Below are positions 36,048 through 53,214 of a stretch of 64,000 nt of DNA, in pieces. Every line of letters starts with the position of its first letter. Positions within the stretch are counted from its first letter, which is position 1. The DNA comes from Bilabrum cf. latius (taxonomy: Eukaryota): contig OZ237757.1 of the NCBI GenBank assembly GCA_965178125.1, forward strand, positions 310,001 to 374,000, written 5' to 3'. The notes beneath the pieces are model-generated. The model had not been told where the DNA came from. It saw only the letters and a program-made list of their open reading frames with translations, and made no database searches. The translations under genes and the position numbers were made by a program.

Positions 36048-36851
36048 CGGCTAACGGTTGAATCTTCTGCTCGCAATAGAGATCAGCGCGATTGAAGTAC
36101 GGCCAAACGACAAGATCCTGTGGTTTCACGCTGGCATCGACTACGGGCGTCTATAGCCTATCCGGCTGAGAATGCTCGCAAACAGGCACAACAGCGGGCA
36201 ACAGCAATACGTCGTTACCGAAGGACCCTTGCAACAGTGCCAACTTCTAGACTGTCAAGGGGCTCGGTACGGCGATAGCACCCCCTAGCCCCCAACCCCC
36301 CCCCCCCCGCTTCTTCCAACGAGCACCCGCCGACGGGCCAGTGGATGCTGACGCTGCCGCCAGTATGGTGCTGCCAGTGAGCCACAGAGGGGACGGAATC
36401 TAGTTTGCGGACGGCGATAGGCACGCAGGCTCATGCAGGATGAAGGAGATAGTCGAGGGCAGAAGCAGTTTGCTCATTCATTCGGAATTTTCTTTGAGAT
36501 CCATTTCTTAGTGTATTGCGTAACGACCATTAAAGCTCGTTTACTCGACCAAACCGCTAACCGCCCACCAAGGGGACGGCACCCAGTTCCCCAGGGTCCA
36601 GGGAATTGCGCCCCGAAGTGGCCCGTTTTCACTACTCGCTCTATGTGATACATGCGATTAGCTTTATCTAGCTTTATCACTCTATGGGCTCGTCTCCATC
36701 AACCAAAAACCGGAAACCACTGGTTGCAGGGCTTCCGGTTTTATGTGAGTAGTGTGCACTTCCAGGATCTAGGCCGGGGTTTTGCCAGGTCCTTCACACT
36801 AGACTATACTACAGAGAAACAGAAACGAGCAGACTGGACTACACTGCTTTC

Positions 36852-39377
36852 ATGGAAATCCAAGTCTCAAATACCGTTAAGCTATGGGAGGTGGACTCAA
36901 CAGCAAAGCCTCCCCGAATCATCGTGCAGCCATCGCTCGAGAAAATCGCCGCTGAAGAACGCATGCCCAGCGACGCCCGTCTGGTGTCGCTGGCCATTTA
37001 TGGCAAAGCGCGAGCCGGTAAAAGTACCACGCTCAATTATGCGCTGGCTTGGCTCCTCCAGAACGCCTACGACCGTCCCGTTCTCGAAGAATATGTGAAA
37101 CAGAACGATGGCCAGGTGGCAAAGTTCCTGACATGCCCTGTGACTGGAGCCTCAGTGCCGCAGCTGTTTGATACAGCAAACTCAGCAGATCCATGCACCC
37201 GCGGGGCAGATGGAGTGTTCGTGCATCTACCGAGAGGCGCATTTGGGCAGACCACCGATATCGTGGTGCTGCTGATCGACTGCGAGGGATCGGGCGCAGA
37301 GGCCGAGGAGCACGGCAACCGGACGGTGCTTCCGGCTCTTGCATTTTCTTCACATGGTTCACTGATCTACGCGCAGCGGGACGCCATCACCCGAGATGCC
37401 GCACTTGACGCCATCGAGCCCATCGTGGAGATGGCGAAGGGCATAGACCGCTCCCATAAGTACGCAGTCCACAAGTCGGAGGCAGCATCCGGTCGCAAAG
37501 AAGGCGTAAAGGTTGCATCAATCCCAGAAGCAGATGGCTCGGACAGTCCTCAACCCCCCCTTGGTGGCCTTCGCATTATGCAATTCATGTGCAACCTTGC
37601 CACAGGCCATGCCGCCAGGCGCGAGCTTCAAGAAGAAGTCTTCGGGTATGAGGACGACCTCGCGACAAGCGCTGCGTCAGCCGTAGATGGCATCATACCT
37701 GGTCTTTCAAGCGCGATCCCGGCGATGGGGTTGCTGGATGGCGCCAAGAGGAACAAGCAGAGGCAGGTTCTGCGAGGGGCCTTCCGTGGCCTGAGCGTGG
37801 GCTGGCTGCCTGCCGTCGCAAGGAGCAGGAGGCGGGGCGGAAAGGTGCCCGAATCCCAGCAATGCGCGCTTCGCGAAGCCCTCGATACGATGCTGTCCGA
37901 AACGGTCGAGGAGCAGATCAAGAGCAGTGCCGGTAGCAGCAGCATGTTCGGAGATCCGACCATGCGGTCGTGCATCACCACTGCCATTCCGAAGCTCCGG
38001 CTGATCGCTGCCAATGCCAACAAAGTCGCCGATCTGTCCAGGATGGAGGGCATCTCCGTGAAGGACCAGCTCGAGCGCAAGGCAGACCGCATCGCCAAGG
38101 ACGCTGCAAGAGACTTGCTGGACAAGGCGATCGCGGCCGCAGAGCAAAGCGACCTGACGTACATGGACCTTGCCCACCGCCTGGCCAACGTGCGTAGCAT
38201 TCCTGCCATCGAGGCAACGTGCGCACGCCTCAAGGAGGCGGCGCTCGAGGCTGCGCGTGATTCATGCATGAAGAAGACAACGTTGGCTCCTACGAAAATG
38301 GGTGAGAGCTACCTCGAAGCGATCGCGGAGGCGCAGCTGAGGCATCTGAGAGAGGCACTCCTGTCGAGGACCAAGCGAGAGGTTGCAGAGGCGAAGCGGG
38401 CTCTCCAACGGTAGATTGGTCCCAGAATTAGCGCTGCAGGATGCGCTGCCTTGAAGGACAGGAAGGTTCCTAGTCTCGTGGAGGCCGCTGAGGGTGTCGA
38501 CAGGAACTCCTATGACCTGCAGGGCACTGGTGAACGGCGGCAGCTCGCTAGAAACGGAGCAGCGCGCAATCTCACTCAGCTCCTTGACTCCCTTGGCCAT
38601 GGGGACACCGAGGACAAGATGGTCTACAGCTTCGATCACGCCATGCAGGAAGAGCTCGCTGGCTGGGTGTCGGAAGCGAAGCAAGCTGCACTCAACGAGG
38701 CACAGCAATCGCACTCTCTTGCTGACAAAGTGACTAAATAGATGACCTGCATCGCTCGAAATCGAAAAGGGATCTACAACGAGCTCAGTTCGCTGCCCCC
38801 GGCGCCAGCAGCAGTTCAAGCGATCGGTTGCGCACAGGCCCGCGGATCCGGTCAGACAGACCCCATTGAGACTCCCTGGAGCAGTGCAGCCGACCTCATT
38901 GCTTCTATTGACTGCTCGTCTGGCGGTGTCGTGCAGGGAATGATCCAAGAAGAGCGACAAGGATGCATGAGGCAGGTACGTTCGGCCATTTCCACGGCTA
39001 GGAGGATGCTTGACCGCGTGATGCAGTGGGATCAGGACGCGAAGACGCAGCTCCGCCTGCAGAGGGAGAGAGAGGAGGCAGAAAGAAGGAGGCGACAGGC
39101 AGAGGAAGCGGCCAGAAAGGAGCGCAAGAAGCAGGAAGCAGAGGAGGAAAGAAAGCGCAAGGCAGATGAGAAAGCTAGGCTCGAGGCAGCAGTGCGGCCG
39201 AGGTATTATACCTGGGTTTCCAGCGTCAGTTACTCAGATGTCATCGTGAGGCCCAGCAGTTCCAGCAGAAGACCCCTAGGGACGACACCAAGGGGGCATA
39301 CTCTTCACAGGGGGGCACGCGGTGGAGTGTACCACATGTCGAGCGGAGGCAACAGGGTGTACCACAAGGGATACTGA
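36852..39377 (+). CDS. Guanylate-binding protein/atlastin-like large GTPase with coiled coil and C-terminal PBCV-type basic adaptor motif (about 841 aa)
   Basis: G1 GKARAGKSTTLN, G2 PCTRG, G3 LIDCEG. Three in-frame ORFs joined by TAG 38412 and 38739, followed by an ER/K-rich helix and the tail GTTPRGHTLHRGARGGVYHMSSGGNRVY. Ends TGA. Confidence 0.8.
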
Positions 39378-39586
39378 TGCTCCACATCGGCAGGTGACTT
39401 TGATGTTCCCTTTGGGGGGGGGGGTTCCTGACTCAAGTTCCTGAGATCCACGAAATACGCCGCTGATCTTTGCCTGGCTCCGGGTCAATCGATTCTGTAC
39501 ATAGTATACACTATACAACACTTTCCATGCCAGGTCTAACCCGAACAGATCCGAGCGACATCCATCCAGGATCCTATCACGTCCCA

Positions 39587-42500
39587 TCACTGCCGACCAG
39601 TAACTGCATGCTCACAATCTCCCTGGTGCGCGCAAAACGAGCACGACATGAAACCGGGCCGAGCGGGGGCCGCTTCATCCAAATCAGGGCCAATTTGCTC
39701 TGTAGCGCCCAAATCCACCGACCTGCTGCCTGGTCGCACACCGAGAGCGGCCTCCATGTCTAACACGTCATCAACACCACGACGCAGCCGTTCCACCACA
39801 GCTACACCGTAGCCAGCAGAGCCCTTGAACGGCAGCATGACATCTGACGCGTCCACACAGCGCGATCCATCTTCTCCACTAACAACCCCGACGGCATGCG
39901 GCTCCCCCAGCCTGTGCTTGAGCAGTGAAGCATAGGCTGCGAGCTGTGGGCTGTTGCGAGCAATGCCCCTCAACCTCGCTGAAGTGTCAGCATAACCACT
40001 TGCCACCGACTGTTGGCTGCGCCCTGCACGCTCCCACCCTGAGTCGTGGCTCGGGTTGGACTTGATGTCCACGATTGAGTAAGGCATCCCCGGCACTGCA
40101 GCCCAGCCGAAGTCTGCCAGGAGGTCCATGCCGGCCTCCATGCCCTCCACAGATTCTGTATCGAGGATTTCCTCGATGTGCTTAGACCCGAGAAGCTACA
40201 TTGCCGAGCCCATGGATGTACCGGTGCACTCCACCCTGTCAATGATGCCCGTGAACAGCACTGGAATACTCCCTGATGCCGCGTCCCCGCCTGCACCTCC
40301 GCTGCGCTCTGCTTCCTGCAGCCCACCAACCCAGGACTCCTTCCATACACCGGCAGCAGGGTCAAATCGCCCGGACACCTGCAGCTCATGCAGCACGCCG
40401 ACCTCATGGTGCAAATCAGACGCAGGCTCAGGCAGCTTGCTGCTGCTGTCGCTCAGATCTGCGTGTAGGCGGGCACCGATCGCCGCTTCCTGTGCCAGCA
40501 GACATGCCCACCGCAGCAGCGGTCGGGTTGATGCCCACTGGCTGTTCGTCAGCTCCTGCATCGGGATTCCAAGCAACATGGGATCCTCGGCATCTTGCGT
40601 AGATAGAGAGTCATTCGCAGTGCTAGCCTCGGTCGCACCATTTCGTACCGGATCAGGGGCATCGCCATGCCAGTGGGCGGTTGCCGCAGCCACACGGCCT
40701 AGCGGACTCTTTGAAGGTTGTAGTGGGCCGTTCTTATGAACGGTGGACAGGATTGCCTCATGCATCCGGGCGCTGGACCGGCCGCTCCGCCAGGCCCGCA
40801 CCTCATCGGGCGTGACAAGTGCCTTTTCAATTACACCTCTTAGAGTTTTGTCCACTTTGTGCATTGGCATCGCCAGACCTGCCCAGCTGATCTCAGTCTG
40901 CAGTTTCATTGCATGGTACAGCACCTGCTCAATGTCAGTCTTGTCCAGCAGCGCGCCGTCACTCTTGCGACTCGCATCGACTAGAAGATCACGCTGCACG
41001 CCCATCCGACGAAGCAAATCATCGCCCCACTCATGGCTGCTCCAGCCTTGCTCGTCGCACACGTCAGTAAGATACCTCGCTAGCCCCAAGCGGTCCGTAC
41101 CTCCGATCGCGGCTGCCAGCCTGCCCCCGAGCTCCAGAGCCGAATGCACAACCGAGCCGTATGCAAGCTGTACCGACTTGCGCTACGAAGCAACGTCACC
41201 GGCATATCTGGAAAAGTAGAACGACCTCTTGCATCTCTCTAGCTCCATCAGCCGCGAGTGGGACAGCACAACGGGAGCATTGGCCGCTTTGATCGCGTCG
41301 GCTCGAAGATGCGCGACTGCACCGGGCACACTCCCCGAGGGATGCGACATCATTTTGGGGTCTGGTCGCGCGACGTTCTATGCAGCCGGCGACGCCGGTG
41401 AGGCGAATAATCCCTGCGCAACAACGCCAAGTGTGGCCCCACCACTGTGCTCATTGATGACCCTGGGTGACGGGCGCGTCGGCCGCTGGCTGGACATTTT
41501 GGAGCGACGGATCGCAAGCAAAGCGCCTTTGCTTATGGACTTGCGCCAGTTCCATCGCTGGATAGACCTGAGCTTGCCGCCCTCTGGTCCAGTGACAATT
41601 GGTGTGCCAGCTGGCGGAGCGTCAGCCTCAGCGGCATGAATGGATCCAATTGAGGACGTACCTGCGCCGGCTTCCGTCGCATTTTCTCGCAGCTCAGCGT
41701 AGATCTGCTCCATTCCACCTAAGGCCGGGGATACGGGGCCCCCTTTCCCTTCCGCTGCTTCGTGGCAATTGGGAACGATCACGGTATCGAACTGAGAGGC
41801 AGGACCGGGGTACCCTACCCTGTCACTGATCAGCAGCACACCGGTCCTGCGAGTGCCACTTCCATCCGCGCCATCATTGACGCCCTCCCCCGCGTCAATC
41901 CACTCACTGGACCATCCAAGGTCAGCCTCATCGTCCAGGGACGACACGCCCTCCTCGTCCAAAACTGTATGCTCCGATGGTACCACTCGCAGCGACGCAG
42001 CCTGCCGCACCAAATCCAGCTGGTCCTGAGGATTGCTTGCCAAGGCGCGGCTGCTTGCCGACTGCTGTCGCTGTATGGATCGCAGGCGCGAGTAGAGCAC
42101 CTACAGCGGGCGCGCTGCCCCCGCTAGGTCAGGCGCCAGGTTTGTGTCACCCCCCGTCGATAAGGAGGAAGCAATGCCCGAGTCGGTGGCGAACTCGAGG
42201 AGCGCAATGTGCGCTGGCCTGCGAATGACGGCAGCCTGGAGCCGCTGCAGGTCACGAACGAGCCGTTGCCCTGGGTCTAGATTCGCCGAGTCACCTCTCT
42301 GGGACTCGTGTGGCCTCCCAATCGCTGCGGATGAATCGATTCCGAATTGCGACACGGAATTTCCATCTCCATCGTCTGCTTCACTCGCTGTTATGGCGTC
42401 TGCAATAGAGGCGGATCGCGCGTCTTGCTTATCGTTCCACCGTTGAAGCGCGCCCGGGTCTGACGACTGAGCAATGTCACTCCAAGCCCCCTCCTCGAGC

Positions 42501-44473
42501 ATTGTCCTCAGCTTGGTCCCATCACCGCCCGCGCGCTGCGCCAGCACGCTCGCTGTCAGAGCCGACGTGCCGTACAGACTGCTGCTAAGCAGCGCAAGAA
42601 CGGGCGCTGTGTCTTCCGGTCGTGCAGCAGCAACGAATGCCTGCACGCACGTCCACACGGCAGCGTGCTGGATCGGCGCGATAGATCGGTTGTCAACGAT
42701 GTCGCCTCCAGACTGCTGCACCGCTCGGGTCACTGCTTCAGCCAGCTCATCTTGCGCCGAGACAGGCAGCAAGTCTAGCAACAGTGCCACTTTATCACCC
42801 CTACTTACAAGCTGAGTGGACATGGCAGCGATCATCCTGTGCTCCTGCAGATCGTCACCGTCAAGCACCAGCTCGAGGACATGATGCCCGGGAGATGCCA
42901 GCGGTTCGTTTCCTTGCTCTGCCGTCGGGGAAGGAGACTCCCCGTCTTTGCTTGCTGATGCAGCACCCATCAGTCTCCATCCGTGGCCTTGAGAACTGCT
43001 TGGGCACCGCGATGCTGCTGCCTGGACTGTATCGCTTATCGTGGCACTCCTGCGTTGCGCGCCCGGCCGCTCGTTGGCCGACTGTGGTTGGTCTGCCGTG
43101 CTTCTCGCTGCCAAAATAGGCTGCTTTGATGCGTTGGCTAGTGTTTCAGACGTCAAGACAGCCAAGCTATTGGCGAGCTTGCCTAGTACCTCAGTGGAGC
43201 CAGTTGAAGCAGCAGACGATGGGCCTGGTATTTGCCCAGACGACGCACCGCCATTCTGACCGTCTCTAAACCCCTGGCATGCCCACTCGATCAGCTCACG
43301 CTGATCCGCCTCCACAACAGAGGCCGCCCCCGTCCTCCTGGGCTGGTCAAAGTCGGACAGCACAGCGAGACCGAGGTCGTGCCCTGCCTCCGACACGCCA
43401 GCTCCGATCGATCGGAGCAGTGAGGCATCTAATGGTGTGAGGCTCTCTCCCTCCGCGACCAGCATGATCCCGGTCCTGCGCGCGCCATCGAGAGATGCAC
43501 TGGTGCTGGCCCCAGCGCTGCCGCTCGCGCCGACGGGCAGGAGCGCATCGACAATCTGCTCGATGGCGTCGACACGCATGTCCAGTGGGGTATCGCAGTG
43601 AAGGAGCGAGATGAGCGCTTCCGCGTCGTCCTCGTAGCCCCATGGGCTGACCCCAACGCCACCGGGGGAATTCCCCCCTGGGCGTCTCCCTTCCGAACGA
43701 CTGCCGCGGGCCCACGCGTGCCACACTGCGTAGCTTTTCGCCAGCTCTACAGCTGCTCGCAGTGTCTTGGTCGTCTTTGACGCCCGCAACAGTTTGGTTT
43801 TGGTGCCGCGAGGGGGTGACAGCTGGGTCATCAGCTCGCGCAGCTGCTCCCGCTCTGCCTCGGCTGCAGCAAGCCTCGGCTCGAGCCGTGCAGTAGCAAT
43901 TGCAAGGACGCGTTCTGGAGATACGGCTGAGGACCGAAGCCTACGAAATCCATTTATAATAGTTGGTGCATACCGCAGAGGATCACCAACTGGTCGTAGA
44001 CTGCGTAGTGGCAAGGAGGGCAACAACCTCTTGAATTGCTGCACGCTTGGTTGAACGGCCGAACCTTCCGCTTCGTTGACTGAGCTCGAATCAAACGATT
44101 CCACGAGTTCAGTCACATCAGTGGATGATTCTTGGATACCTCTATTGGTGCCAAGAAGAGAACTGCGTAAGGCTTCCTCCCGCATTCGTGCACCAGTTCG
44201 AAACGACAGCTCCTGACCAAGCGAAGACAACGATCGGGGAGCTCCAGTGTGCGTGCCCATAGGGAGAACTTCAGTACAGACGCTGTCGATGCTTGGGGTG
44301 ATAGAATGGCGCAGTGCCACTGGAGTCAAGAGGCAGATGTTGCCGGCTGGCACCTGCTTTGCGCTAATCAGCCTGCCCATTTGCTTGCCCAACTATGCAA
44401 TCACGAAAGAATACGACGGGAAGTTCTACACCAAAACCTTATCGCGACCAACTGCATGAAGAAATCGGCTCAT
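39587..44473 (-). CDS. Degenerate UvrD-like helicase fused to an Fe-S PD-(D/E)XK nuclease (AddB/AdnA/RecB-family-like; about 1628 aa)
   Basis: ORFs 42101-44392, 41378-42100, 40196-41149 and 39587-40150 share one frame joined by TAGs. Nuclease motifs: LSHSRLMELERCKRSFYF...YGSVVHSALE, FTGIIDRV, IVDIKS, QLAAY, CSFCAHQGDC. N-terminal remnants of UvrD motifs: AGNICLLTP, MLVAEGESLTPLD, LAVLSDFDQ, FDTVIVP. The start codon is uncertain. Confidence 0.7.
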
Positions 44474-44616
44474 ATATCGATGCAGACACGTTTGAAGAAT
44501 TGATGGCGAGAGCGCCGAACCTCGACAGGCGCGAAGGAACCTTCGCTTCGCTGCCGATGCCAAAACTTATATTTCTTGGGGTTCAAGATTGCCCTAGACT
44601 CGTATTGCATCAAATC

Positions 44617-47600
44617 ATGGATATTTAGGACGAATTGGACCAGTCGCGTAGGGACCTATCGGAGTTGGTGCAAGAAGTTAAGTATTGGGAGTCGAGAGTG
44701 AGTCAAGCCGCTTTATCTTGCGATACGCTCGTCCGCTTCTGGCATACATGTTCGCCGCACGCCCGATTTCAGGTTAAACAATCGCAGTATGATACCAAGA
44801 GGGCTCATTTTGCAGCGATGAAGCGCGGGACTCGGGAATGTGCAAGAGTAGGCATGTCGTCCATGAATGAGATCTAGGTATCGCTGTTTGCAGCACGGCA
44901 TGCTGGCGTAGGTATGCCTGCTCCTGTCAGACACTTTCTCAGATAGGTAACATAGGCAGCGACTACGTGTGCTGATAGCCAGCTAGCTCAGCTAAAAGGA
45001 CTGGAAAGATGGCTGCACGAGGAAGTAGGCGAGCAGGTGTCTCTTGTACCAACGTCTTCATCCGATTCCGAGAGCGACAGTGACATGTCTGGCTCGCTCG
45101 ATCCATAGGATAAAGTATCGGTTATTTCAGTTGAAAAGAAGCGCGGCATGGGTCAGGATACTGGCGTCGCTCTGCCCCGAGCAGCTGCTGCAGCCCCCGC
45201 GTCAAGCCGAGCCGGGGCAGGTGCTTCAAGCGGGCGAGCATCGGTCGCCAGTGGCATGTCAGCATTTGCACGATCAGACGAAGGCGATGGCAGCTCGATG
45301 GACAGCGAGGATTCCAGTGATTCAGACGCATTGGGCAGTAGCAGTACCCTGGGCCGCGCCCTCACCGCCCAGCAGCCTGGCGTGCACTCGCCACAGCGCG
45401 TAGCCGGCACTGCCCAGAAGTCGCGGTCGAAGAGCGCAGGCAGAATCCGGCAAGGTCACCGAGGCGCAGCATCTCCGCCAGCAAACGGGCCCGCCAGCGG
45501 CAGGCACAGGCGCTCCTCGGTCCCAGCTGGTGGCGCTGCTGTCGTGCCAGAGCACATTCGGGCTGAACTATAGGCAGCAGCACGCTCTGCTGAAGCTGCA
45601 GGCACTGGCAAGAGCGGGAAAAGCAAGCAAGCACATAGCGATGGATTTGATCGAGCCAGGTCCGACCTGTCAGCTGCAGGTGCGCTCCACCTGCTCCCGC
45701 TAGCGTCTCCTCTTCAAGCAGAGCGGCTGCCCAGCGGGGCACCTGAGTCAGCCAGCCAGCTGGGCCGGAAGGAGCTGATGGAACTGCTAGTGGGGCTGTA
45801 CAGGAAGCACGACCGGGCCATTGACATCATGCGCAAGAGGCACGAGCGGTCCATCTCGGCTATGGCGCAGGAGGTGAGGCAGGCCCATGAGCAGGCCAGG
45901 CATGAGAGGGCAGCGAGCAGTGCCAGGCTGGGCGCGCTATCAGGGCTACAATCAAGGCAAGGATCACCCACAAAAAGCTCCCAAGCTCCCATCGCTATTC
46001 GCAAGGAAGCAGATCCTAGGGACGAGATTGCCGGTGAGGGGGGCCATCGACCAGCTGGGGGACAGCGGGAAGGTGTGCACAGAGGTGAGGCGCAGGACTT
46101 TGGGGCACAGAGCATATCGGCTTTATCCATTACTTCTCGAGGATCGCGTGGCTCAGGTCCTTCCGAGATCCAGATGGCAGCGGCAGAGGCGATGTCGGCC
46201 ACAGCTGCAGCCGTCAGGGCCGTATGTAGGAGGCAGAGCGAGCGGGAGAGGGAGAGGACGCGTGGAGATGAGGGCAGTGGATCCCATAGCATGCGCTCGG
46301 TAAGTCCAAAAATTGATGTGGCGTCAGCTGGGCACGGCAGGCCACGCCGGTACTCTGATGACGAAGACGTGGCTGCCCTGCGTCGTGCTGCAGCAGAGGC
46401 TGGAATCGAAAGAGATGAAGAGAAGAAGAGCGGAAATATGGCGGGGTCCATTGATAGTAACGGGGCAAGCGGGTTGCTTGATGCTGGGAAGGGCGCCGAA
46501 GCTACGACTCTAGGCGCCTCGACGACTGACCTTGCCACCCGGGGCATTGGCTTCGAGACGGCACGGACGGTAGCAGGTCTTGAGCAAGGCAAGTCCCCTA
46601 GCAAATTGAAGTCGCGCTAGTCACCTTCAGCATCCACGGATGAGCCGCCGCTTGCTGAGAAGGACCTGTAGGCCAGAGTGGATGCACTAGAGAAGGAAAG
46701 GGAGGAACTCATGGACGAAATGTGGAGGATGACGCAGGCGCTCGAGGTGCTGGCTGGACAGCAGCAACATCAGCAGTATCATTCAAAGGAGCTAGGGGAA
46801 GGGCCACGCATGCAATCACAGCCAAGCCGGCATCAGCGGCAACCGGGTGAAACTGCATCTTTGTCGTTCGGCAGAGCAAATCAATAGGGCGGGACTAGTA
46901 CAGAGCCTGGAAGCAGAATAGCCACTAGATACGGCGAGGAGCAGCGTGAGGATCTGAGCGGCACAAGGTCTTCAGATATATTGGAAAGCGTGAAGGGCCT
47001 TGTTGGCATTGGGCCAGGGCTGGTAGACACTGGCAGGTGGGGCGGTGGTTCAGCGCCAGCACCTGACAGGCCAATGGGTGCAGACAACGAGGATACCAGG
47101 AGGGGAGATGGGGCTGGTCCAAGTGTCAGCAGTGGCGTATTTGCACAGCCAGACCGTGGCAAGGGATCCCTACCAGTGGATGGCGTTGACTCTGATGGGG
47201 GCGGCACCAAATCAGGCAAACAAGGCAGCATTGAACGGGACGAAGACAAGGTAGAAGGCAGCACTGATGGTGGTTGCTCGGGGCAGACCGAGCAGGAAGA
47301 GGGTGAAAGCATGGAAGGGGACCAGTTCTCCTTCAAGGATGACGTGGATGTGGGCGGCGCCACTGATGGTGGTGAAACTGACGCTGCTGGTCTCGTGCAC
47401 AGCTCGGCCGCTGGTAAGGATGCATCCACTAATCAAAGCGACGACGAAGACAGCAAGGCAGCGCAGTCCGCAGACCGCGCAGCACAGCAAGCAGTGCGTC
47501 GGCACCTAGAATCGACGGTGAAGCTCCTCTCGGGGCACCTATCTCAGAACGTGGCCACGCTAGAGCAGTGCCAGGAAGAGCTCCAGGCGACTAGATCCGC

Positions 47601-50600
47601 GCTCCAGGCCACAAAGTCGCGGCTGTCCGATAGGGAACAAGAGCTTGCAGGTACCAGAAAAGACGTCAAATCGTCAGACAGGGCTGTGGGCGAGCTGGAG
47701 GCTCTGATCGATGAGCTGCAGGCGTAGAATGGAGAGCTGTCGGAACAATTGCAGGAGGCCAAGCTTCGTGAAAGAACAGGGCAGCTTGAGCAGCATTCGG
47801 CTGCAGAAACATCGCATTTACTCCCGGAATCGCTTGTTCCAGTCAGCGTGGAGCCTCAGGAGAGACTAGATGCCGGTGTACCGGACTCGGGCTCGGCTGG
47901 CGCGGGAGATCAGTCTGCGCAGGCCGTGATTGTAGCCAGCGCAGAGGCCGCCAGGCGCGAGGCACGCACCTGCCAGCAGCTGCTGGAGCAGTCCCAGCAC
48001 CGGGTGAAGGACCTGGAGGAGGAGCTATCGCAGGCCAGGACGGCAAATGCCTTGCATAGGTCTCAGTCGTTCACCATGAGGACGCAGCTGGAGGGGCTTG
48101 CGAGGGAGGATGAGAGGCAGGGCGTCGGACGGTTGGAGCTGCAGCAGAATGCGGTCGTTGCTGAGGTGCCATCTACACAGCAGGCGTCTAGCGGCTGGCA
48201 AAAGCCACCTTCAGTGAGACTCGCCGCAGCTGCCGGCATTGAGGCTATGGTGGCTGAAGCTAGGCTATCGCCAGCTCCGATTGCAGTGGCAAAGGACGCC
48301 CCGCACGATGCCGGTGAGGAGACGAATGGCGAGGACTGGAAGGGCAGAGCAGAGGCCGCTGAGGAGCTCGTGCCCCGCCTCGCAGCCCAGCTTCGGGAGC
48401 TACAGGCCACTCATGATCAGCTGCTCCGGGATAGTAATCAGCAGCAGCAGTAGCTGCAGCAGCACGCCAAGCAGCCTTCACCCAAGGCTCCCAAGAGGCC
48501 ACCGCCGCGGCGCCCACTACTCGACCGGGATGGTACTGACCTCTTCGCCACTGCCGGCTCGGTGGCATCCATCTAGTCACCGGGCAGATCAAAGCCCACA
48601 CCAGGTGGTGACTGGCAAGGGAGTGATACCAATCGCTCGCGTGACGACCTGGATCGACAACTGTCCGAAGCTGTGGAGGAGGGCTAGGCCGCCCAGTCGC
48701 GCGCTTTGGTGCTTGGTAGTCAGCTGCAAGACGCCAGGGCTGCCCTAGATGCAGAAAAAAGCAAAGTGGAGCAGCTGCAGCGAGACTTGGAGGCTGTCCA
48801 GGCAGCACAAGACTCCATTGCAAGCGACCTCTCTTCCAAAGAGCGCGAGCTCGATTCTGCCAAGCGGAGAGTGCAAGATGCCGAGCATGCGGCCCGCGAT
48901 GCGCGGAGACAACAGCGAGAGGCAGAGGTGGAACGTAACAGCTTGAAGCGCACCTTGGATGGCATGCAGCAGCAGGTAGATCGTGCCAAGCAGTTCCAGA
49001 GGGAAGCTGAGCGCGACTTGGATGATGCCAGACGCCAGCTCCGCAGCGGTGGCGGCAGCAGCCGCGCAGATGGAACGAGAGAATCCAGTAGGCGATACTC
49101 TAGTGAATTCGAAGACGCCTCGCCGGCAGTGGAGAGGAGGCTCAGGCTGCAGCGGGACGAGGCCAGATCGGAGGTGGAGGCGCTCTCGAGGCGCCTGCAG
49201 CTGCTGCGTGACAAAATGGACGCGAGCGAGGCCAAGGCAGAAGCTGCCGTGGACGAGCTGGCTGATGCGCTCGGCGACCGTGCTGCTGCACAACACGTTT
49301 TGGCTGCGGTTGAAGACGAGCTTGATGCTTGCAAGCGAGCCAAGGATGCTTGGCTCGCTGATCTTGCCACAGAGGCCGGCCAGGCGATCAGGGTGCTTGA
49401 GAGCGTGAGCAATGCGGCACGGAGGCTCGCTGGGTCGTTCGGGGATGTAGGTGGAGAGCTTGCGCGGTCTACCACCCGGTCAAGGAGGCGCGAAGGTCTT
49501 ACTCGCAGCGGCAATGCGTCCGATAGCGACAGTGCCGTAAGTGTGGACGAGTGGCTTCGGGGCAGCGGGGCCAAAGCAAGCGCCTCAGGTACTGGCAGAA
49601 AGTCGAAACAGGGGCGAGGAGTTAGGCACAGAGAGAAATTGGAAACCAAGGATGGCCCCCTTCCATTGAGTGTCAGTCGTTTGCACGCGGCGGTGATGCG
49701 CGGCCTCTCCCAGGTCGGGTCAAGCAGCAGATCCGGTGCTTCGAGGGGTCGCGTGACCTCCGTCAAGCAGGTGCAGGAGGCCTGGAGGTCAATTGGCTTG
49801 GCCAGCAAGGCGATTGAGACGATATTTGACGACGCTGAGCGACACTTGCAGCGGTGCAATGCACGAGCAGACAGGCTGCAGGGCAAGCACGAGGAGGCAG
49901 TGGCAGCAGCGGAGGAAGCCAGGCAGCAGGCCATTGCAGCGGAGGAAGTGGCCACAGATGCAGAAATCAGGGCACAGGAAGCGGAGGAGAAGCTAAAAGA
50001 ACAGCATCAGAGCATGGAAGCAGAGCTGAAGGAGGCAAAGCAGCGGGCAAGGCGAGCCGAAGACAAAGCGAACCACCTGGAGAAGCATTAGAGCGTGGCT
50101 GCCCAGGCTGCCCTCGACGCTTAGCACCAGCTAGAGCGAACGCGCAGCCAAGCAGATGACTCTGCAGACAGGGCGGAACGGCTACAGCAAGAAGTGGATC
50201 GACTGGGGCAGCAGGTGGCTGAGGCAGACCGGGCGATAAACTCCCTCGAGGAGCAGCTAAACAGCGCGCGTTCGGATCTAGAGCAAGCCAAGTCGCATGC
50301 GCGGGAGGAGCTGGAACGGCTGGAGCAGCAGCACAGGGCAGACATGCAGCGCACCGCAGATAAGATCGATAGCTTGAGAGAACAGGAGCGCCAGCAGAGG
50401 TCGGAGGCCCATGGGTTGCGACAGGACGCAGGGGACTTGCAGAGTGAGCTTGCGCAAGCATAGGCTGGCCTGGAGTAGGCACGCAATGAGATCGCCCAGC
50501 TGCAAGACGACACCAAAGTGCACTCGCAGCAGCGACGAGCGTTGCAGCAGCAACTGCAAGACGTAGAGAAGGCGCTGCAAGAGGCAGAGACGCGCGAACA

Positions 50601-53214
50601 CATGCTTTAGCGCGATCTGGCTGACCGGCAAGCGCGGCTAGAGGAGGGCAGGGAAGAGATTGAAGGTCTCGAATCTGCCCTGCAAGCCCAAGAATCCCAG
50701 CTGCAACAAGCCAAGCAAGCTCTCCAGGGTGCCCTCAGTGACCGAGAGCAGGCAGAGCAGGACGCGGCTCGAGCCAACGAGGGGAAGCGCATCGCAGAAG
50801 AGAAAGCCTCAGAGTATGAAGATGCCGCGCATCGAGCCCACGCCGATGCCTAGCAGTCTAGGCTTGAGGCAGAGGACGCTCGTGCAGAGGCTGAGGCTGC
50901 GCTGGAAGCCGCGGCTGAGGCAGAGGCGGAGCGTGAGTAGCTCGAGAAGCAGCTGGAATCCACACAGGCAACTCTTGCCGACGCGAAGCAGAGGGAGGTG
51001 TCCAGTCAAGAGGCCTTGCAGGATGCCAGGCAGAGCATCCATGACCTTCACAGAGACCTGGACGAGGCAGCTGCCGGGTCTGCGTCTGAGCGAAGGGAAC
51101 TGCAGTAGGCGCTGGAGGATGCAGGATCGACCGCTGAGGAGGCTGCGCAGGCGCTGCGGGCGGAGCGTCATCGGAGGCAGGGTGCCGAGCAGCAGCTGCA
51201 AGAGGCCGCAGCGGACTTTGAGCGGGAGAGAGCCGGGCGAGGGCACGCCGATTCTCTTTTGAAATCGGCTCGAAGCGAGATCAAGGCGATGCAAGCGGCT
51301 GTGGCCGACCAGCAGTCGCAGTTGGAGCACCTGGAGCAGGTGCAGAACGAGCTGCAGTCCCAGTTGGAGGAGGCGCGTGCGGCACGCCGGGACGCAGAGG
51401 AGCTCGCAGCCGAACGGGACGAAGATGCGACCAGAGCCGACGAGCAAGCCCGCGGCGCGCAATCAGAGGCAGCCGATGCCAAGCATGCCGCAGGACGTGC
51501 CAAGGAGGAATCCACGCGCCTATCCAAGGAAGTCGCCGATCTGGCCCGCAGGATGGATGAGGCAGAGGCGGGGAGAAGGGAGGCTGTCGCGGCGATGGAA
51601 GACGCCCAGCACCGCGCGGATCGCCTCGAAGCGGCACTGAAGCTCGCCCAGACGGAGATGGCTGCCACGTCCGCTGACAGCCGATCGAAGGTGGACGAGC
51701 TTCGCGCGCGCATGCAGGCGGCAGCACGGGCCAGGGAACAAGAGGCCAGCAGGGTGTGGGCGGATGCGGAGGGGGCAGTGCGCGCGGTGGCAGCTGGGCT
51801 TGATGGGCAGGCGGCGGCGTTAGGACTGCTAGATTTCGATCGCAGCGATGGAGGTGACGCGGCAGCATCTGCGTCGTCATCTAAGTCGGGGGTAGGAGTG
51901 CAGGGGGTGATGGCGGCAGCGCGACGCATGGCGGACCAAGCCAGACAGGCCATGCAGCGAGTGGTGCACCTGCAGCAGCAGACCAAAGACGCAGAGCAGC
52001 AAACCTAGGCGCTGAAGGCTGCCCTAGAAGATGCGCGAGAGCGCTCAATTGAGGCGGAGCAGGACCGCGACAAGCTGCAAGCAGAGTGCAAGCAACTCAG
52101 CAGGGCGGAGCAGGAAGCACGAACTGCACTTGAGCAGGCGGAGCGCCGCGCGCAGCAGGCCCTTGACAAGGTGCGTGCAAGCGCCACCATCGCGCGCGAG
52201 TGGGAACAGGCAGCGGCGGGGTACAGGGCAGAGCTTGCCAGGGAGCACGCAGCCAAGGGTAGCTCTGTTGCAGCCATGACGTCTGGTGGCGCGATTCGGC
52301 CCAGGCGCAGCAGCGTAGCAAGTGCAACGTCTGCCAGCGTGCTTCGGCCGTCTGAATTGCAGCAACATCGGAGCACCAGTGCATAGCATGCCCAGCCGTC
52401 GAAGCGATTGGACTCGGGGCATCGTGCAAAGCAGCAGGAGCAGCAGCCGGTGACTGTTGGGGCAGTCGATACCACGCCCGTGAGACGGCCAACCAGGCGA
52501 GATGGCACGCAGGGGGGCGAGGAGCTGCCTGGAACCCCGGATAGCCTGCGATGGTCTGGCGGTAAGCATGTTCGAGGCACAGGGTCGGATGGACTGGGCA
52601 ATGATGGTGCTAATGCTAGCAGCGGCACAAGCTCGCGTCCTAATGGGGGTGACTTTGGCAGGGCCGTGCAGACCCCGCAGATCGTGCGATCCATGCGAAC
52701 AGCCAGCGACCGGCTTGCAGAGCTCGAGAGGCGCGCTGCAGAGCTGAAGCAGGCTGGCGCACAGATGCGTCAAGAGCATGGCTTGCCAGCAGTGCAGGAT
52801 GACGGCCAGTCAGGTCCTCTATCCAATAGGCCAAGCGAGTTGGATGCTTTCAGGGACGCTGGCAAGGGTACCAGTTCTGGCAGTGGGGGGTAGCACCATG
52901 GCCAAACAGGGCACCATGGCCAAACAGGCCCGTCACGGAGCCCTCCTGGACCCACGAGCCGGCCAGCCGATCCCATGGCAGGCCCAGACCGCGGCCGCTC
53001 GCCTTTGCCGAGGAGCCGAGGTGCTCGGGCTCCGGCTGCTGGGCACACTGCCGGAGCTTCGGGACCCCAGCCTGCATCAAGCGGTCGACAGAGTGGCCTC
53101 GGCTCATCGCAGGGGCTGGACAGCAGCCAGATGTCGTCAAGCGGCGCGAGACGAGGCCCCAGCAGGAGGGCCCCAGTTGTGGAGCTAGACATCTATATGG
53201 GGGACGGGGATTGA
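44617..53214 (+). CDS. Giant coiled-coil protein of unknown function (about 2865 aa)
   Basis: One frame from MDI(TAG)DELDQ to TGA 53212-53214 (followed by TAA), interrupted only by more than 20 TAGs. Long E/A/Q/R-rich heptad segments. Confidence 0.75.
52894..52929 (+). repeat. 18-nt tandem duplication (HHGQTG x2)
   Basis: CACCATGGCCAAACAGGG CACCATGGCCAAACAGGC. Confidence 0.85.

Follow-up and report, generated by a model that had tools for sequence, protein, structure and literature searches.

GTPases of the GBP clade are known across eukaryotes, and only for the lipidated animal forms is it understood what directs them to their targets; the C-terminus of GBP1 is a polybasic/CaaX end. A quite different kind of C-terminal end is the PBCV_basic_adap module (Pfam PF08789), which is carried by the PBCV-1 kinases A278L and A282L, both listed among the DNA-associated virion proteins (PMC3281028). 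Here we describe a gene of Bilabrum cf. latius whose product appears to join the two. It lies at positions 36852-39377 of the forward strand of a 64,000-nt window (assembly GCA_965178125.1, contig OZ237757.1, positions 310,001-374,000), and all coordinates given below are positions within this window.

The N-terminal half of the product belongs to the GBP/atlastin/RNF112/Sey1 branch of the dynamin superfamily, within which it is highly divergent. On balance, and taking the explanation as a whole, we lean towards the view that the open reading frame (ORF) is a single intron-less gene that looks expressed, in a eukaryote that is rich in GC, poor in introns and uses TAG as a sense codon, and that its tail is a divergent member of PBCV_basic_adap, a basic three-stranded β mini-domain of about 28 residues in which a core P is changed to A and a core K to R. 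A first-pass annotation made from the letters alone had proposed a GBP/atlastin-type GTPase with a tail resembling this module, and both points are borne out: the first by a family profile and by the fold, with only 13.3 bits for the protein alone against a Pfam requirement of 21.1, and the second by a score of 27.3 bits with a family profile, a gap-free alignment, the C-terminal position and the nearest ESM clusters.

With hGBP1/2/5 (PF02263) the protein shares a G..R.GKS P-loop, a switch-I Thr, the D.EG motif, a top-ranking fold, a helical stalk and a basic, putatively targeting C-terminal element; it differs from them in an identity of only 12-15 %, below the Pfam threshold, in the lack of a placed RD (G4) motif, in a disordered insert of ~40 residues in the G domain, and in having an ER/K helix and a folded mini-domain in place of the polybasic/CaaX end. 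RNF112 (ZNF179; PDB 9jju, 9jjv and 9jjx) is the best match both of the family profile and of Foldseek, although it has a RING finger where none is seen here and its C-terminal half is different. The atlastins and Sey1p include the highest fold scores, but the hydrophobic membrane hairpin of these proteins is not visible in the sequence and the family profile favours GBP and RNF112. The tail has in common with PF08789 the core G.RGG.Y-5-G.+.Y, an upstream G.T(I/L) strand, a basic composition and an extreme C-terminal position, whereas it carries A for P and R for K, and the partners seen for PF08789 are SH3b, SNase, DUF5763 and the PBCV-1 protein kinases, never a GTPase.

A fusion of a GBP-clade GTPase to a PF08789-like tail was found neither in the single paper naming the domain nor among the relatives that we retrieved, and the titles and abstract openings of the literature on GBPs in protists contain no obvious report of one. 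The fusion looks real, and it looks like a new domain combination, in which a GBP-type engine is joined through a presumably rigid ER/K spacer to a C-terminal module that is very common in bacteria, phages and chloroviruses.

Reading frame and genetic code

The coding sequence and the codons on which its reading depends are as follows; P0003 and P0009 are two protein relatives described in the next section, and X6 and X7 are sequencing runs.

36852..39377, + strand: whole coding sequence, 841 codons plus TGA, intron-less, with two in-frame TAG sense codons (ORF analysis)
38412..38414, + strand: in-frame TAG, codon 521; the alignment with P0009 crosses this codon and P0003 ends just before it
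38739..38741, + strand: in-frame TAG, codon 630, with an ATG immediately after it; spanned by X6 record 8 and by X7 record 17
39375..39377, + strand: TGA stop, 4 residues past the last conserved Tyr

The last segment of the ORF (39279-39377) is in the ORF frame and translates exactly to GTTPRGHTLHRGARGGVYHMSSGGNRVYHKGY, followed by TGA. This confirms the ending that the first-pass annotation had read after an ER/K stretch (E, R or K at 31 of the 49 residues 733-781), and its statement that the fusion becomes visible only with TAG readthrough also holds, since codons 521 and 630 are in-frame TAGs.

TAG readthrough is the normal code of this organism. With the standard stops the window contains 27 ORFs of at least 300 aa, the longest of 1408 aa; when TAG is read through there are 39, and ORFs of 3097, 2948, 2178, 1969, 1724, 1659 and 1489 aa exist only under this reading. 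Twelve long ORFs contain 105 in-frame TAGs in 17,731 codons and end in TGA (eight) or TAA (four), never in TAG. The domains encoded by these TAG-bearing ORFs are ordinary eukaryotic ones (an ABCA-type transporter, CLU with TPR, G8, GH3 and 2H phosphoesterase), and one of the TAGs lies within the Walker A motif encoded by the ABCA gene. The residues that face TAG in alignments vary, being H (ABCA4), T, E/N, I/L and E/Q (GH3) and Q (P0009). The last of these comes from a BLASTP alignment of P0009 with residues 300-526, which crosses codon 521; the pairing of Q with Q is biased, and so only a hint, because TAG had already been translated as Q in the query. The choice of amino acid has no bearing on the tail. 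The window as a whole is 61 % GC, gene-dense and apparently intron-free, with TAG as the only reassigned codon, and no tRNA genes were found within its 64 kb.

It might be argued that translation ends at one or other TAG, at codon 521 or 630, and that the tail belongs to another product or to none. The public gene call for P0003, which is 83 % identical, does end exactly before codon 521, an ATG directly follows the TAG at codon 630, and no homologue was found for residues 631-841. We nevertheless regard separate products as very improbable: none of the 12 long ORFs ends in TAG, whereas 105 TAGs are internal, one of them in a Walker A motif; homology to P0009 runs across codon 521; three ORFs abutting in the same frame with no gap would be odd; and one contig bridges both TAGs together with the tail. 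Standard-code gene calling in a TAG-recoding organism chops proteins of this kind into fragments.

The contig in question, X6 record 8 (2137 nt), covers 37275-39411 in one piece, with both TAGs and the tail and with no joints. The contigs of run X6 cover 36814-39411 and nothing beyond, and those of X7 only 36826-39362, in both cases with no loose ends, and those of X1 and X5 continue through both flanks. These limits hint weakly at a transcript that has no introns and short untranslated regions and that starts downstream of an ATG at 36684. None of the runs is on record as RNA for this stretch, the kinds assigned to X6 and X7 are guesses, and the flagging of X6 as 'probably DNA' speaks against its being a record of expression. 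The in-frame ATG at 36684 was considered as a start codon and rejected: the contigs of X6 start only at 36814 and those of X7 at 36826, and the N-terminus of another relative, P0012, is in register with the ATG at 36852. The upstream extension (36684-36851) would begin MGSSPST, which resembles a myristoylation signal; it holds a TAG, lies outside the X6 and X7 contigs and is probably untranslated.

Contig depth over the segment encoding the G3 motif (VLLIDCEGSG, 37263-37339) exceeds that of its flanks, by ~5-6 fold in X6 and X7 and by ~2 fold in X1, and a 74-nt variant contig at this motif bears a G>A change at 37305. The excess and the variant together suggest that the organism has several paralogues of the GTPase.

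The GTPase half

The features of this half of the protein are listed here with the evidence for each.

36969..37841, + strand: large G domain of GBP/atlastin/RNF112 type, residues ~40-330, with a disordered insert at ~198-239 (sequence, profile, model and fold searches)
37002..37025, + strand: P-loop GKARAGKS, residues 51-58, with R54 where GLYRTGKS of GBP1/2 has its P-loop arginine (alignments)
37191..37214, + strand: switch-I region PCTRGADG, residues 114-121, with T116 aligned with the T of HTKGIW in GBP1/2 (profile alignments; invariant in close relatives)
37278..37289, + strand: G3 motif DCEG, residues 143-146, matching DTEG of the GBPs (profile alignments)
37842..39023, + strand: all-helical middle/stalk region, residues 331-724 (model helices to residue 519; match to relative P0009)

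By itself the protein is nearly an orphan, and with its relatives it makes up an orphan-like family. A word-indexed homology search with the whole protein gave no match. A full HMMER pass with residues 1-724 against 1.84 billion representative proteins recovered 11 relatives, mostly fragments produced by standard-code gene calling, and their shared motifs are G.AR.GKS(T/S), PCT.G.D, LP.GAFG, DCEG.G and LPAL. P0009 is matched by phmmer over residues 299-610, and the N-terminus of P0012 aligns to the ATG at 36852. A scan of metagenomes added only two loci, neither of which shows a C-terminus: L112, which is the gene of P0004 on a contig that breaks off within the G domain, and L113, a weak 37-residue match. 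P0012, a complete-looking relative of 439 aa, closes with a coiled coil, then a Pro-rich linker and finally the residues CVIC, which we take to be a CaaX-like box for prenylation of the kind that animal GBP1/2/5 have.

A profile built from 12 sequences of this family finds RNF112 (9jju, E-value 9.7e-5), GBP2 (4.1e-4), GBP1 (1.5e-3), GBP5 (7.5e-3) and, more weakly, atlastin-1 (0.15) in the PDB. The alignments pair the P-loop with its internal Arg, the switch-I Thr and the D.EG motif with GLYRTGKS, HTKG and DTEG of GBP1/2. We take the P-loop Arg to be the counterpart of the catalytic finger of GBP1 and atlastin, and the aligned P-loop, switch-I and G3 residues presumably keep their usual roles. 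Among the family members 4 of 12 match the Pfam GBP model at E≤1, the best at 2.6e-5. The fold agrees with the profile: Foldseek with the AlphaFold model returned 48 matches at E≤1e-3, of which all among the rows listed are RNF112, GBP or atlastin, RNF112 being the best (E 9.7e-8). A search independent of Foldseek, against 48,161 representatives, gave Z-scores of 12.9, 12.9 and 12.4 for atlastins, 12.5 for GBP2, 12.4 for RNF112 (over 324 residues), 11.2 for GBP1, 10.1 for Sey1p and 8.8-9.9 for SMG9, with unrelated helical rows at 7.7 or below. The helices of the model extend past the G domain as far as residue 519.

Several results weigh against this assignment. The Pfam GBP model (PF02263) gives only 13.3 bits (E 0.047) for residues 1-520 and 11.9 bits for the whole protein, short of its gathering score of 21.1, and phmmer with residues 1-520 finds nothing in the PDB at E≤10. 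The AlphaFold model of the G domain is poor (mean predicted local distance difference test, pLDDT, 53; predicted template modelling score 0.48). The G4 motif of GBPs, (T/L)RD, reads the guanine base, and a motif of this type could not be placed in the profile alignments, which end before its position; the candidate G4 strand GLRIMQF (residues 241-247) contains R-I, and no Asp is conserved there among the relatives. The protein thus falls outside the GBPs at the Pfam level; it probably works like a member of the GBP/atlastin clade and very probably descends from it.

The C-terminal tail

Three features follow the stalk.

39048..39194, + strand: ER/K-rich stretch, residues 733-781, likely a single α-helix spacer (helix predicted from the E/R/K content given above)
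39195..39278, + strand: Ser/Arg/Tyr-rich linker, residues 782-809 (sequence)
39285..39368, + strand: PBCV_basic_adap-like core, residues 812-839, with three predicted short β strands, TLHR, VYHM and RVYH (hidden Markov model alignment and AlphaFold)

A profile match for the tail was obtained or not depending on the profile. The curated PF08789 model reports none at E≤10, whether given 61, 41 or 32 residues (its gathering score is 20.4 bits, and the HMMER filters conceal most matches above an E-value of ~0.1). A profile of 14 non-redundant phage tails that do pass the Pfam model scores the tail at 27.3 bits (E 1.1e-10 for one sequence), and one of all 60 family tails that we collected scores it at 25.1 bits. 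Among 1028 six-frame pieces of the window the ORF piece containing the tail scores 21.8 bits (E 6.6e-6), and the runner-up only 5.2 bits. The curated model appears to describe the right family but to be insensitive, because it misses or under-scores canonical members: it gives no match for L018 and 12.9 bits for L035, the two tails most like GTTPRGHTLHRGARGGVYHMSSGGNRVYHKGY, and it passes none of 10 natural variants with GARGG in place of GPRGG. In the collected members as a whole it matches 20 of 24 ORFs at E≤1 and 10 of 50 at E≤0.01, and 15 of the 74 scanned pass its gathering score.

The alignment itself is gap-free. The tail core G-A-R-G-G-V-Y-x5-G-N-R-V-Y is set against G-P-R-G-G-x-Y-x5-G-x-K-x-Y of the family, with seven shared invariant columns (G, R, G, G, Y, G and Y) and two conservative changes, and the hidden Markov model pairs the core with residues 32-59 of P0001. 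Columns that played no part in retrieval agree as well, the T, S, N and K of the tail being the commonest family residues at their positions. The change of P to A has natural precedents, in 11 GARGG matches from 10 viral contigs, all of which keep the K; the change of K to R is absent from all the retrieved examples among the matches listed. When all six frames of the 64-kb window are searched for the relaxed motif G.RGG.[YFW].{3,7}G.[KR].[YFW], the tail is the only match. The composition of the tail is basic, with four R, one K and four H and neither D nor E. AlphaFold, given the family alignment, predicts the three short strands with a mean pLDDT of 79 (~85 in the core), and the three nearest clusters in the ESM Atlas all carry PF08789, at 0.89 (202 of 256 features), 0.79 and 0.75.

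The alternative to common descent is that this is a Gly/Arg/Tyr-rich end arrived at by convergence or chance, such as an RGG-box-like, low-complexity end that binds RNA or forms condensates, and a number of observations tell in that direction. To the silence of the curated model must be added the alteration of two of the most conserved positions, one of them a K that is invariant among the matches listed, and the fact that a module of ~28 residues is too short for secure homology. The tail was picked out in the first place for its likeness to the motif, and the members of our profiles were retrieved with the motif, so that their core columns were sharpened by selection. A fold search of the tail in BFVD gave no match at E≤1e-3, the named PBCV adaptor-domain proteins at ranks 6 and 11 having non-significant E-values of 0.21 and 0.34. 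No homologue of the last 211 residues (631-841) was found by the word-indexed search. When P0003-P0014, L112 and L113, most of which are fragments, were searched with the profile of family tails, none of them showed the module.

Composition, however, does not account for the score. When the last 32 residues were shuffled with their composition preserved, none of 20,000 shuffles reached 27.3 bits, the maximum being 14.2, and the resemblance thus exceeds what chance or composition would give. The alignment with its invariant columns, and the agreement of columns on which no selection had acted, tell against a chance end; the position at the C-terminus is that of the family, there is a single RGG and no repeat, and the prediction is of an ordered sheet, with the ESM features pointing to PF08789. 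We consider an unrelated, convergent tail unlikely, and homology to PBCV_basic_adap probable.

Distribution and origin of the module

With the tail itself as query, a word-indexed comparison of its 61 residues with longer proteins gave no match, and of 597 pattern matches in viral contigs none was confirmed. The occurrence of the module was surveyed by scanning its core pattern, GPRGG.Y-5-G.K.Y, as DNA through IMG/VR and through bacterial assemblies taken at one genome per species. At least 111 loci were found in phage-sized viral contigs of IMG/VR and at least 120 in the bacterial assemblies, the bacteria including Bacteroidota, Pseudomonadota, Cyanobacteria, Acidobacteriota and others. Among the matches listed all are in frame, and the protein ends within 10 residues of the module in 64 of 66 non-redundant viral-contig examples and in 116 of 122 bacterial ones. 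The proteins are small, many have N-terminal hydrophobic leaders, and the module is seen in company with SH3b, SNase or DUF5763. It is mainly a C-terminal end of bacterial and phage proteins and is not virus-specific, and both the 'PBCV-specific' name and the PF08789 model understate the family.

A Cys-rich subtype, C.C......C.GPRGG.YC...G.K.Y, is common in SH3b proteins of Pseudomonas and Sphingomonas and is mostly missed by the Pfam model. In an IMG/VR contig of 67,950 nt (L122) two adjacent ORFs both end in the module, as tandem GARGG variants, and two adjacent ORFs of a 184,228-nt contig (L035 and L036) likewise both end in it.

The first-pass annotation had gone further and suggested that the protein is an effector against giant viruses using a captured viral module, and neither suggestion is supported. 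A viral source is not indicated, because the module is common in bacterial chromosomes and in phage-sized contigs; the tails that look nearest among the matches listed come from bacteria and are of the YH.S..G type, as in L141 and L151, and so short a domain does not allow its tree to be rooted. Nothing in our analysis bears on immunity. The suggestion amounts to a cell-autonomous effector whose tail was taken from a chlorovirus-like virus and serves as a targeting or decoy module. It has some appeal, as GBPs are immune GTPases in animals and the domain is found in chlorovirus proteins, of which two are associated with DNA in the virion (PMC3281028); the raised contig depth at the G3 motif hints that there are several paralogues, and the differing C-terminal ends of the relatives, such as CVIC in P0012, would fit swapped targeting elements. 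Yet the module is far commoner in bacterial chromosomes and phage-sized contigs than its name implies, the neighbouring genes have no defence theme, and GTPases of the GBP clade, atlastin and Sey1 among them, also do housekeeping work on membranes. We think such an effector quite improbable. Equally doubtful is the more general proposal of a protist counterpart of animal GBP defence, in which a small, fast-diversifying GTPase family with interchangeable C-terminal ends (CaaX or basic mini-domain) would be directed to the nucleic acid of viruses or bacteria, or to a polyanionic envelope. Were that proposal true, PBCV_basic_adap would gain its first function and GBP-type immunity would extend beyond animals and plants.

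A possible mode of action

The order of parts in the favoured reading, a fusion of a GBP-like GTPase to a PBCV_basic_adap-like tail, would run from a large G domain through a helical stalk, an ER/K single-helix spacer and a short linker to a basic β mini-domain. From what is known of GBPs and atlastins, nucleotide binding may be expected to lead to dimerization or oligomerization through the G domain, with the ER/K helix holding the tail away from the stalk. The tail, to judge from its composition and position, from the PBCV-1 data and by analogy, could then dock the protein onto a polyanion, for instance DNA, an acidic lipid or a glycan, and would fill the role that the polybasic/CaaX end has in animal GBPs and the CVIC end in P0012. 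Polyanion binding by the tail is an inference. If the tail does dock onto polyanions, PF08789 would acquire a testable function, and the gene would provide an example of the exchange of targeting ends on GBP-like scaffolds.

Neighbouring genes

The neighbours of the GTPase gene encode a low-complexity protein and a protein with a PD-(D/E)XK domain. The latter is the product of a convergent ORF (39587-44473, - strand) of 1628 aa, with a weak match to PD-(D/E)XK nucleases (E 1.3e-5) and a C-terminal Cys cluster, CSFCAHQGDCEH. The start of this ORF overlaps the ORF of a gene for a 2939-aa coiled-coil protein (44395-53214) by ~79 nt, and one of the two start codons therefore probably lies further in.

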